Shown here: positions 18,001-21,000 of the stretch, piece after piece
Layout: each line of letters begins with the position of its first letter
How positions within the stretch are numbered: position 1 is the stretch's first letter
DNA from: Stx2-converting phage Stx2a 981509
Reading direction: 5' to 3' (one strand)
Length of the DNA: 25,488 nucleotides
Sequence record: LC487996
Position numbers: made by a program

Positions 18001-21000
18001 CGTACTGCGAAATCCTGCATCGATGGATGACGAAGGCTGGGCACGTGTTGCTAACGGCATGAGTCAGCTTGCAGATTTGGATGTATGGGTAGTCGATGCC
18101 TCGCGGTTATCGGTCGAAGAAATACGCTCAATCGCAGAACGGCACAAACAGGAAAATCCAAACCTCTCACTCATCATGGCGGATTATCTTGGCCTGATTG
18201 AGAAGCCGAAAGCAGACCGCAACGACCTCGCAATTGCTCACATCTCCGGAAGCCTGAAGGCGATGGCGAAAGACCTGAAAACACCGGTTATCTCCCTGAG
18301 TCAGCTTTCGCGCGATGTTGAGAAGCGACCAAACAAACGCCCGACAAACGCAGATTTGCGTGATTCAGGAAGCATTGAACAGGACGCAGACTCAATCATC
18401 ATGCTCTATCGGGAAGCGGTATATGATGAGAACAGTAGCGCCGCGCCATTTGCTGAAATCATCGTGACGAAAAACCGTTTTGGTTCGCTTGGTACAGTTT
18501 ACCAGCGGTTCTGTAACGGACACTTTGTTGCATGTGACCAGGATGAAGCCAGACAGATTTGCACAGCATCAAATGCACCTGCTGCGCGTGGCAGACGATA
18601 TGCACAAGGGGCTGACGTATGACCATCTACATCACTGAGCTAATAGCAGGGTTATCGTTACTAATGGTTCTTACTGTATATATTATTAAGTATATTCTTT
18701 ATGCGAATAAAAAAACTAATTGATCACGATGAGCTTCTGTCAACATTATCATATGACTCAGAAACAGGAATATTTAAATGGCTAAAAACAAATTCAGTAG
18801 TAAGAGTAAAAGGTAGTATTGCTGGAGGTGTTAGTGGTGGTTATATATGCATTAGTATAAATAATGTTTTGTATAAGGCGCATAGACTTGCTTGGTTCTA
18901 TGTATACAAAAAATGGCCTCCTAAGTTTATTGATCATGTAAATGGGAACAGACTTGATAATAGGATTTCAAACCTAAGACTGGCAACAGAAGAGCAGAAT
19001 GCAAGAAACATTGTAGGGAATAGATTAAACACATCCGGTGCAATTGGAGTGTCTTGGTATAAGCCAACTGGCAGGTGGAAGTCTTATGTTGGTTATAAAA
19101 ATAAGACAATATCGTTAGGGTATTTCGATAGCAAAGAAGATGCAGCATTCATAGCAGCACTAGCAAGAAAGAAACTATATGGAACTTATGCGAGTAAAGC
19201 ACTTAATTGCGAGCATGAGCTTTTATCTCAATTTAATAATGATGAGGATAAACTTGCGGAATATCTTAAGGGAAAATATAAAAGGACTCGAAAGCGTGTT
19301 AAAAAAAGATAAAGGCCTGCTGGTAATCGCAGGCCTTTTTATTTGGGGGAGAGGGAAGTCATGAATCTGGACAAGCAAGATGCACAAACTATTAGCTCAT
19401 ACATAAGGGCATCAAGACCAGATTACAAAGGTCCGGTATTCGTAGATTTATCTCGCCTTGAATAGATTTACATGTGGAAAGCAAGGTTACTTACGCATTT
19501 TGTTATTCGAACGATGACTAGCAACATTACAAAACCAATGTAACTGGAAGAGGTGAATATGAGCACACTCGCAGACCTTATTCATGCCGATATGGCTGAA
19601 GATGGAGCAAGGCGTAATAGGTACTGGAAATCATCGAGCCTTCCAGTTTGTGAAAGATTCAATCACAGGCCAAAACCAAAACGTAGCCGACGAGACAAAG
19701 TGTTGAAAAAACTCATGCAAATTAACATGGCTGGTTTTGTCAGATTCGTGAGTGAAACGACTAACGGTGATTGATATGGACGAATCAAGAAAGCAGTTTG
19801 AGGAATACGTTGCCAAAAAATTGAGATTACCATTCGAGATGATAACCGAGGCAAGAAATGGTGATAGGTACTTCGCATTTTCAAGCATGGATATTCGTCA
19901 CTCCTTAAATGATTGGTGGGCTTTATGGCAGGCATCGCGAGCAGCTATTGAACTGGATATCGACTGGCCCGAATCGAATGACGACCTTTGGAAAGATGGT
20001 GAAGAAGGTGCTTATGCGATGGGTTATGAGGATGGGCGTGACAAAACGGTAATTGCAGTAATGAAAGCTATCAGAGCCGCTGGAATTAAAGAGAAGAATT
20101 TTCGATGAAGCAAACAATCTTCCTCCGAACTAAGCAACAACAGCAAGCTGCAATAAATGCCATCCTCGCAACACCACTCGATAAAGACAAGCCAGTCACC
20201 ATCCGCATTACTGACTACAAGCGCAACCTTGACCAGAACGCAAAATTTCACGCGATGCTGGCGGATATCGCTCGTCAGGTTCAATGGTGCGGCAAATGGT
20301 TAAAACCAGAACAATGGAAGGTTTTGTTGATCAGCGGTCATGCAGTGGCAACAAAGCAGGAAGCTGATGTTTTGCCCGGGCTTGAAGGCGAATACGTCAA
20401 CATTCGCGAAAGCAGCGCGCAGATGAGTGTGAAGCGTATGGCAAGTCTGATTGAGTACACGACAGCATGGGCTATTGGTCAGGGTGTCAGATTTACCGAC
20501 AGGAGGTACGAATGAGACGACAGCGACGAAGTATCACCGACATAATCTGCGAAAACTGCAAATACCTTCCAACGAAACGCTCCAGAAATAAACGCAAGCC
20601 AATCCCAAAAGAATCTGACGTAAAAACCTTCAACTACACGGCTCATCTGTGGGATATCCGGTGGCTAAGACATCGTGCGAGGAAAACAAGGTGATTGACG
20701 CGATGATTTATTCGGGGCTATATTCCTCACGCGCCAGCAAAATCTGGCGTCGGGATTAGCACCCCGGATATCGAAACGGTGCATAACCGCGCTGGCGGTT
20801 TTTTATGCGCTAAGCACAGTCACATTCGCGATTTATGGCGGGCTGTGTGGGGGAGCCGAAAGGCTCGCCGGATGTTTCGACCGGTAGTGCTAACCCCGCA
20901 CAGTTCGCCACCACGATGATTAGCACCTGACGGTGGCGAGGTAAAAATTATCGAAACGCGAGGTCATTATGGCTGTTCAAATTTCTGTCGAAAACCTTTC

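Follow-up and report, generated by a model that had tools for sequence, protein, structure and literature searches.

The early region of the Shiga toxin 2 (Stx2)-converting phage Stx2a 981509 raises the question of why a free-standing nuclease gene should lie directly behind a replicative helicase gene that is itself interrupted by an intein, and whether these two selfish elements entered the locus, and move, together. The DNA analysed, referred to here as the window, is a stretch of 25,488 nucleotides from record LC487996 that represents the early region of an Stx2a prophage. A sequence-only reading had described an AT-rich islet with its own strong terminator, carrying an HNH-AP2 endonuclease whose mobility might be connected with the helicase and its intein. 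Comparison with related phages and prophages leads instead to a reading, held at a probability of about 0.6, in which this is a free-standing homing endonuclease gene (HEG) of the HNH_3-AP2 type that targets the linker formed by the tiny ninA open reading frame (ORF) and the tR2 terminator, independently of the intein.

The boundaries of the insert were defined by aligning the window to phage 2851, which has the same helicase and lacks the insert, to lambda, and to the HNH-bearing phages PA28, HK022 and 1717. These alignments give exact limits to 665 bp of extra DNA and a single exact insertion point, CAGG|CCTG. This point lies within the 25-codon ninA ORF, which is split after codon 11, and abuts the tR2 stem at its 5' foot. 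The empty site reads ...TAATAACAGG|CCTGCTGG... and the occupied site ...TAATAGCAGG[GTTATCG ... AAAGATAAAGG]CCTGCTGG..., with the insert enclosed in brackets. As AGG stands at both ends of the insert, two placements are equivalent, one of which (18648-19312) ends on the HNH stop codon; an imperfect repeat, TAATAGCAGG / GATAA-AGG, is also found at the insert ends. The GC content of positions 18651-19310 is 33.5%, the lowest among all 660-bp windows of the 25.5 kb (mean 46.5%, standard deviation 3.7%), and GC at third codon positions is 0.24, versus 0.60 in the dnaB exteins. The AT-rich, compositionally distinct block that had been described is thus confirmed, and the insert is compositionally foreign DNA.

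The terminator, on the other hand, does not belong to the insert. The hairpin, a 10-bp GC-rich stem with an 8-nt loop followed by a T-tract, is the backbone tR2 of the lambdoid early-right operon, kept intact beside the inserted DNA, since the same sequence is present in HNH-less phages including lambda. A 'tR2 terminator' inside the tiny ninA ORF is annotated in several HNH-less records (Nil2, Lahn1, Nil3 and phage 21), lambda reads ...ATGACCATCTACATTACTGAGCTAATAACAGGCCTGCTGGTAATCGCAGGCCTTTTTATTTGGGGGAGAGGGAAGTCATG... between ren and ninB, the same hairpin is found in both lambda and 2851, and the 42 bases from 19309 to 19350 match ~360 further phage records without the HNH gene. The predicted folding energy is -18.0 kcal/mol in the window, where the hairpin is slightly longer, versus -16.1 and -17.9 kcal/mol at two empty sites.

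The linker as a whole measures ~85 bp, is conserved at ~98% across lambdoid phages and is where the replication module meets the nin region. Its right arm is matched at ~98% identity in ~380 phage records and ~2050 Escherichia coli genomes, whatever follows, and its left arm is also present in lambda. The ninA ORF, annotated in phage Nil2, has an ATG that overlaps the dnaB stop codon (ATGA) and likewise overlaps the stop codon of whichever replication gene precedes it elsewhere. Because the upstream and downstream modules reassort freely across empty linkers as well as occupied ones, the linker is a bona fide mosaic joint. It is also non-essential, ninA lying within the region removed by the nin5 deletion; being ubiquitous, non-essential and flanked by homology, it is an ideal homing site.

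Within the window the ninA frame continues into the insert as an extended version, ninA', whose peptide remains hydrophobic and whose 3' end overlaps the HNH start by 23 nt, an arrangement that might couple translation of the HNH gene to that of ninA and dnaB. The open ninA' frame was considered as a sign of selection and dropped, the chance of an open 24-codon run in DNA of 33% GC being estimated at ~0.15. Just outside the insert, a G at 18646 accompanies occupancy: all 20 occupied sites from the IMG/VR database have it, and 117 of 120 empty sites have an A, among the matches listed. Three empty IMG/VR linkers (of the 120 listed, L027-L146) carry the G variant, TAATAGCAGGCC; these could be footprints of precise loss, ancestral alleles or cleavage-resistant alleles.

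The assignment of the product to the HNH endonucleases is firm. Pfam HNH_3 (PF13392) is matched over its whole profile (1-46) with 56.1 bits against a cutoff of 24.8 (expectation value, E, 2.9e-15), and the 203-residue protein matches PHROG 99, 'HNH endonuclease', at E 3e-71. The Pfam AP2 match (E 1.6e-6, 28.7 bits) lies under the gathering cutoff of 33.3; PF00847 is precomputed on a 97%-identical protein (P0001), and the sequence also matches the AP2 domain of WRI1 (E 0.003). An AlphaFold model built from an alignment of 39 homologues, with a predicted local distance difference test score of 89.4, forms three strands and a helix over residues 117-163. The best PDB matches of the model are the plant AP2 domains 7et5 (root-mean-square deviation 1.5 Å, 55 columns) and 7wq5, the other top match being the HNH homing endonuclease I-HmuI (1u3e, 106 columns). 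The AP2 assignment is accepted despite its sub-threshold Pfam score because both the model and its structural matches are those of an AP2 domain, and the HNH-AP2 architecture is real. Nine residues that are invariant in the 39 aligned homologues (D78, H79, N81, D86, N87, N91, L92, R93 and N103) are all retained; the catalytic histidine of the DH pair and the metal-binding or structural asparagines are present, and the predicted beta-beta-alpha core superposes on that of I-HmuI. A basic C-terminal tail of ~40 residues is absent from 38 aligned homologues. The sequence-only description of a free-standing HNH-AP2 gene behind an intein-containing helicase therefore stands.

The ORF is separate from ninA, having a different frame and its own start and stop codons, and lies outside any intron or intein; RNA elements within or beside the insert were ruled out, an Rfam scan of 18000-20200 yielding chance-level matches only, with no intron or other RNA family. 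No plus-strand promoter is predicted upstream of the ORF, and a promoter of its own was rejected, consensus matches being confined to the minus strand and fewer than in shuffled sequence. Because no such promoter is predicted, the gene is probably the final cistron ahead of tR2 in a transcript that starts at pR and includes the replication genes. Two further roles were considered and set aside. A defence-system function found only a weak PADLOC match to a 'homing endonuclease' model, with nothing in NCBIfam for the HNH protein, and a terminase-associated HNH protein similar to the HK97 gp74 packaging factor does not agree with a sporadic gene of another Pfam family (HNH_3) situated in the early-right operon, after dnaB and before the nin genes.

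The cassette shows presence/absence polymorphism at one precise site, being missing from lambda, 2851 and at least 120 IMG/VR loci. Among INPHARED phages it occurs in 18 of the 382 records that hold the linker, all 18 covering both cassette ends. Of 5426 complete E. coli genomes, 2050 match the linker, at ~3040 places, and 123 contain the occupied form; the cassette core is found at 138 places across 126 genomes, a single genome holding at most three copies. In IMG/VR, 20 occupied sites, selected by their left-junction pattern, and at least 120 empty sites share the same junction. Linker occupancy is thus ~4-5%, an E. coli genome carrying up to six prophage copies of the linker, and the gene is neither uniformly present nor host-like in composition. 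The 138 places in 126 genomes are more than independent occupancy of ~4.5% predicts, by a rough estimate that clonal sampling confounds.

Equally variable are the flanks, with the cassette found behind at least six upstream replication-gene ends and ahead of at least five downstream nin-region starts. The claimed link to the helicase does not survive this comparison, since what precedes the cassette may be lambda P-ren (PA28), a P22 gp12-like helicase (HK022), the DnaB type with or without its intein (intein-less in WGPS6) or, in E. coli genomes, a toprim primase-helicase. Within the dnaB type of the window alone it occurs on at least three dnaB 3' haplotypes. An identical cassette protein (WP_077070034) lies behind two unrelated replication modules in E. 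coli Z1323CEC0005 and Z1323CEC0001. In some prophages the operon holds other HNH genes as well (L150 5077-5604; L151 1-116 and 5077-5604): a 33%-identical HNH-AP2 paralogue lies between ninB and the dam methylase gene, and a further HNH gene upstream of the replication genes.

The cassette itself is uniform, with copies 97-100% identical throughout; those deposited for HK022, PA28, 1717 and WGPS6 occupy the same site at 98.9-100% nucleotide identity. The next relative in phage records has only ~42% protein identity, and a single 63% match in a set of 5.8 billion proteins is a chimera, its first 66 residues identical and the remainder derived from another HNH gene. Because the nearest non-chimeric relative in phage records is only ~42% identical, the cassette is a tight, recently spread clone. 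On a lambdoid contig (L148 3918-4520, Logan SRR10380363) the same left junction and first ~275 nt of the cassette switch to a GC-richer HNH-AP2 3' half that runs directly into rusA (protein P0004, whose first 66 residues equal those of the window protein), which implies a recombination between HNH paralogues that would have removed tR2 and the nin genes. The copies examined comprise eight distinct alleles with 18 variable sites, 12 of them at codon position 3; the ratio of non-synonymous to synonymous polymorphism (pN/pS) is ~0.2-0.5, which shows mild purifying selection, and amino acid changes fall mostly in the C-terminal tail. In phages 1717 and F349 the insertion sequence ISEc8 has entered the cassette 7 nt from its left end (L004 559-3000, phage 1717, corresponding to 18657/18658 of the window) and so divides the HNH gene from transcription driven by pR.

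The relationship to the intein, which sits 0.8 kb upstream of the insert, can be judged from loci at which the two elements occur separately. All four combinations exist: neither element (2851), the HNH gene only (WGPS6), both (the window) and the intein only (L069 and 20 E. coli genomes). Among ~680 E. coli genomes with the dnaB 3' end of the window, 60 carry the cassette, 24 the intein and four both, such that the HNH gene is found with 4 of 24 intein-bearing and 56 of ~656 intein-less alleles (odds ratio 2.1, p = 0.15, before correction for clonality). Put otherwise, 20 of the 24 intein-bearing alleles lack the HNH gene, 56 of the 60 HNH-bearing alleles of this dnaB type lack the intein, and the cassette also occurs in phages without any dnaB. 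Comparison of the window with the intein-less dnaB of WGPS6 reveals 24 extein substitutions, 10 of which lie no more than ~75 nt from the intein junctions, in clusters at 16759-16810 and 17851-17890 that look like co-conversion tracts of recent intein homing or loss. Because these substitutions hug the intein and none occurs over 18167-19400, the intein moved alone and was gained or lost, with short conversion tracts of its own, on a backbone already bearing the HNH gene. The suggestion that two selfish elements had accumulated at one locus is therefore upheld as far as independent invasions of the region are concerned, the intein and the cassette behaving as separate invaders, and not in its tying of the insert to the helicase or intein.

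The homing process proposed here would begin with transcription of the gene from pR as the final cistron before tR2. When an HNH-less lambdoid genome is present in the same cell, through co-infection or co-induction of prophages, the enzyme would nick or cut the empty linker or a nearby site, its AP2 domain probably reading the GC-rich tR2 stem or the G-run GGGGGAGAGGG, both directly beyond the insertion point on its right; a preference of AP2 domains for GC-rich DNA is noted in PMC10448857, citing Magnani et al. 2004. Recombinational repair from the HNH-bearing genome would then copy the cassette in, with very short co-conversion tracts, and the dnaB intein would be a second selfish element moving independently. 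Possible signs of super-Mendelian inheritance with co-conversion comprise one linked nucleotide difference 5 nt from the junction (G in 20 of 20 occupied versus 3 of 120 listed empty sites), with no accompanying dnaB tract, and a multi-copy count confounded by clonality. Several observations weigh against this proposal. The target site is inferred solely from the position of the insert, and a single ancestral insertion followed by modular recombination at a mosaic joint would produce the same distribution; empty linkers reassort as freely as occupied ones, and an efficient homing element would be expected to occupy more of its sites. Neither HNH-linked markers nor a co-conversion tract appear in the last 600 nt of dnaB, no recognisable Shine-Dalgarno sequence precedes the HNH ORF, one copy (L013) is frameshifted and in phage 1717 ISEc8 stands between pR and the gene.

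Much of this evidence would equally suit a passive history, in which the cassette entered the linker once, by illegitimate recombination at AGG microhomology, and was thereafter shuffled by ordinary homologous exchange, the nuclease playing no part in its spread and being perhaps inactive or otherwise used. The terminal AGG and the imperfect repeat beside it, the free reassortment of modules at empty linkers, an occupancy of only ~4-5% and the existence of degraded or disrupted copies (the L013 frameshift, ISEc8 in 1717) all fit such a history. However, transfer between both types of flank would then require exchange within arms of 32 bp and ~50 bp, the surrounding modules vary far more than the cassette does, and 21 of the 22 full-length copies examined keep an intact ORF, with every invariant residue of the HNH_3 motif retained and pN/pS below 1. 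Passive carriage, the main rival reading, is judged rather unlikely, while retaining appreciable weight. Another view has the nuclease acting in competition, cutting rival lambdoid phages with an unoccupied linker (marker exclusion) and copying its own gene as a by-product. A target common to ~380 phage records, with as many as six prophage copies in one E. coli genome, would serve this purpose, as would early expression with the replication genes, which position and the promoter scan suggest. Yet PADLOC gives only its weak 'homing endonuclease' match, outside any defence-system context, and the gene, as part of the pR operon, would be repressed in the lysogen and confer no protection from superinfection before induction; exclusion of this kind, hard to separate from homing in practice, is considered improbable.

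Least probable by far is the cooperative mobility that had been suggested, in which the HNH enzyme cuts intein-less, or HNH-less, dnaB and the intein and HNH gene home as a unit. The two elements do lie within 2.5 kb of each other, collaborative homing has been put forward in print for HEG islands (PMC10448857), and IMG/VR shows a nominal enrichment, with the HNH gene at 4 of 5 intein-bearing versus 6 of 34 intein-less sites (p = 0.011) in a small, clonally redundant sample. The four IMG/VR loci with both elements represent only two haplotypes, however, the window providing a third, and the association in complete E. coli genomes is the non-significant one given above. Moreover, the site occupied is the ninA-tR2 linker and not dnaB, several of the genes that the cassette follows (lambda P-ren, the P22-type helicase, toprim primases) lack the dnaB intein site, and the substitution pattern relative to WGPS6 indicates movement of the intein by itself. 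The distribution thus already largely refutes this model.

Homing into the linker has several counterparts among known nucleases. I-HmuI of phage SPO1 nicks one strand beside its insertion site. Its N-terminal beta-sheet and HNH(N) core superpose on the modelled window protein over 106 columns (probability 1.00) and share the motif DH...N...N; unlike the window protein, it is intron-encoded and its C-terminal DNA-binding part is helical, with a helix-turn-helix, and not AP2. The two share ~20% sequence identity, and comparison of sequence alone gives no significant match (E 0.23). The free-standing seg and mob HEGs of T4 practise intronless homing, in which they presumably cut relatives without the HEG close to where they are themselves inserted and are propagated by repair with co-conversion of flanks. 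The window gene resembles them as an intergenic selfish nuclease gene and differs in that the seg nucleases are of the GIY-YIG family, T4 is lytic and the presumed target here is a non-essential linker and terminator, as opposed to a neighbouring essential gene. Intronless homing of this type is discussed in PMC10448857.

The closest parallel is with the HNH-AP2 proteins, a recognised HEG family (Magnani et al. 2004, as cited in PMC10448857) to which the 'IPA-HNH' HEGs of ICP1 phages belong (Barth et al. 2023, PMC10448857), and HEGs are known to cluster with other HEGs around essential genes, at boundaries of exchange (PMC10448857). The window gene shares with the ICP1 genes an N-terminal HNH and C-terminal AP2 domain, a free-standing and sporadic nature, a place beside an essential replication gene and at a boundary of genetic exchange, and the proximity of another HEG, in this case the intein. 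It differs in matching Pfam HNH_3 directly, where the ICP1 genes require searches of one hidden Markov model against another, in its extra basic tail of ~40 residues, and in its location in a temperate lambdoid Stx phage, inside a tiny ORF and abutting a terminator. The gene itself has been deposited before under database labels only, as a 'putative endonuclease' (HK022_57 / NP_597900), a 'homing endonuclease' (PA28), a 'putative HNH endonuclease' (1717) and gp31 of WGPS6. No description of the site, distribution or activity of the element was found in literature on the lambdoid nin region and tR2, the HK022 endonuclease or the Stx-phage DnaB intein; the main gains here include its precise insertion site and its distribution.

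Features of the window, with positions counted from its first nucleotide
Feature	Position	Strand	Basis or remark
O-like initiator gene	15285-16232		
DnaB-type replicative helicase gene, intein-interrupted	16229..18622	+	'DnaB analogue' in the lambda P position; Pfam matches
LAGLIDADG intein, 339 aa, in frame (DnaB aa 202-540)	16832..17848	+	global alignment to intein-less WGPS6 DnaB
Conserved 5' part of ninA, left arm of ninA-tR2 linker	18619..18650	+	identical or near-identical behind seven different upstream genes
ninA', ninA frame continuing into insert, 34 codons rather than 25	18619..18723	+	sequence reading; HK022_56 in HK022
G (A in empty sites; ninA codon 10 Thr to Ala)	18646	+	5 nt left of insertion point
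Extra DNA relative to empty sites, 665 bp, ~33.5% GC	18651..19315 (or 18648-19312)	+	alignments to empty and occupied sites
HNH-AP2 endonuclease ORF, 203 aa	18701..19312	+	Pfam, PHROG, AlphaFold model
HNH_3 domain (aa 58-102)	18872-19006	+	Pfam
AP2 domain (aa 114-161)	19040-19183	+	Pfam below cutoff, and model
tR2 intrinsic terminator of lambdoid early-right operon	19311..19345	+	terminator scan; annotated in Nil2, Lahn1, Nil3
Hairpin of tR2	19311-19338		
Linker right arm: ninA 3' remainder, tR2 and G-run GGGGGAGAGGG	19316..19361	+	~98% identity matches
Three small genes between tR2 and ninB	19343-20108		PHROGs 21123, 1785, 343
ninB	20105-20515		

The gene order of the region is initiator, helicase, HNH-AP2 ORF, terminator, three small genes and ninB, and the prophage is close to Stx2a_WGPS6, to which the window is 99.8% identical over 17900-20200. 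The helicase matches Pfam DnaB_C (E 3.7e-71) and the DnaB N-terminal domain (E 7.9e-13), and its intein-less, otherwise near-identical orthologue in WGPS6 has 458 residues. The intein, which matches LAGLIDADG_3, Hom_end and Hom_end_hint in Pfam, interrupts Walker A between K and T (GMGK|T) and is rare, occurring in only 24 of the 5426 complete E. coli genomes; it begins with Ala and ends with HN, the +1 residue being Thr, and the non-nucleophilic Ala at its first position suggests a class 3-type intein. The three small genes beyond tR2 are of unknown function, and their block, of below-average GC (0.41-0.43), is one among at least five alternative sequences that follow tR2. A second low-GC stretch of the window, at 10401-11730 (minimum 0.36), corresponds to the N-antiterminator and small hypothetical genes in the immunity-left region of WGPS6.

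As it stands, the element is an ordinary selfish gene that had already been annotated, for which a precise site and figures of distribution can now be given and from which the supposed intein link and the idea of its own terminator have been removed. Should the enzyme cut the empty linker, recombination would be stimulated exactly at the joint between the replication module and the nin-Q-stx region, in hosts that often contain several lambdoid prophages. Part of lambdoid mosaicism, and the reshuffling of Stx phage backbones, would then have a mechanism open to test, and the enzyme would also be of use as a compact nuclease that has an AP2 reader and whose natural site is defined. A bolder proposal, unlikely and offered with reserve, is that by breaking a near-universal linker the nuclease drives exchange of replication and nin/Q/stx modules among co-resident prophages, the A-to-G change being a mark of self-immunity. 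This proposal, if true, would supply a concrete enzymatic cause for one classical 'linker' mosaic joint.

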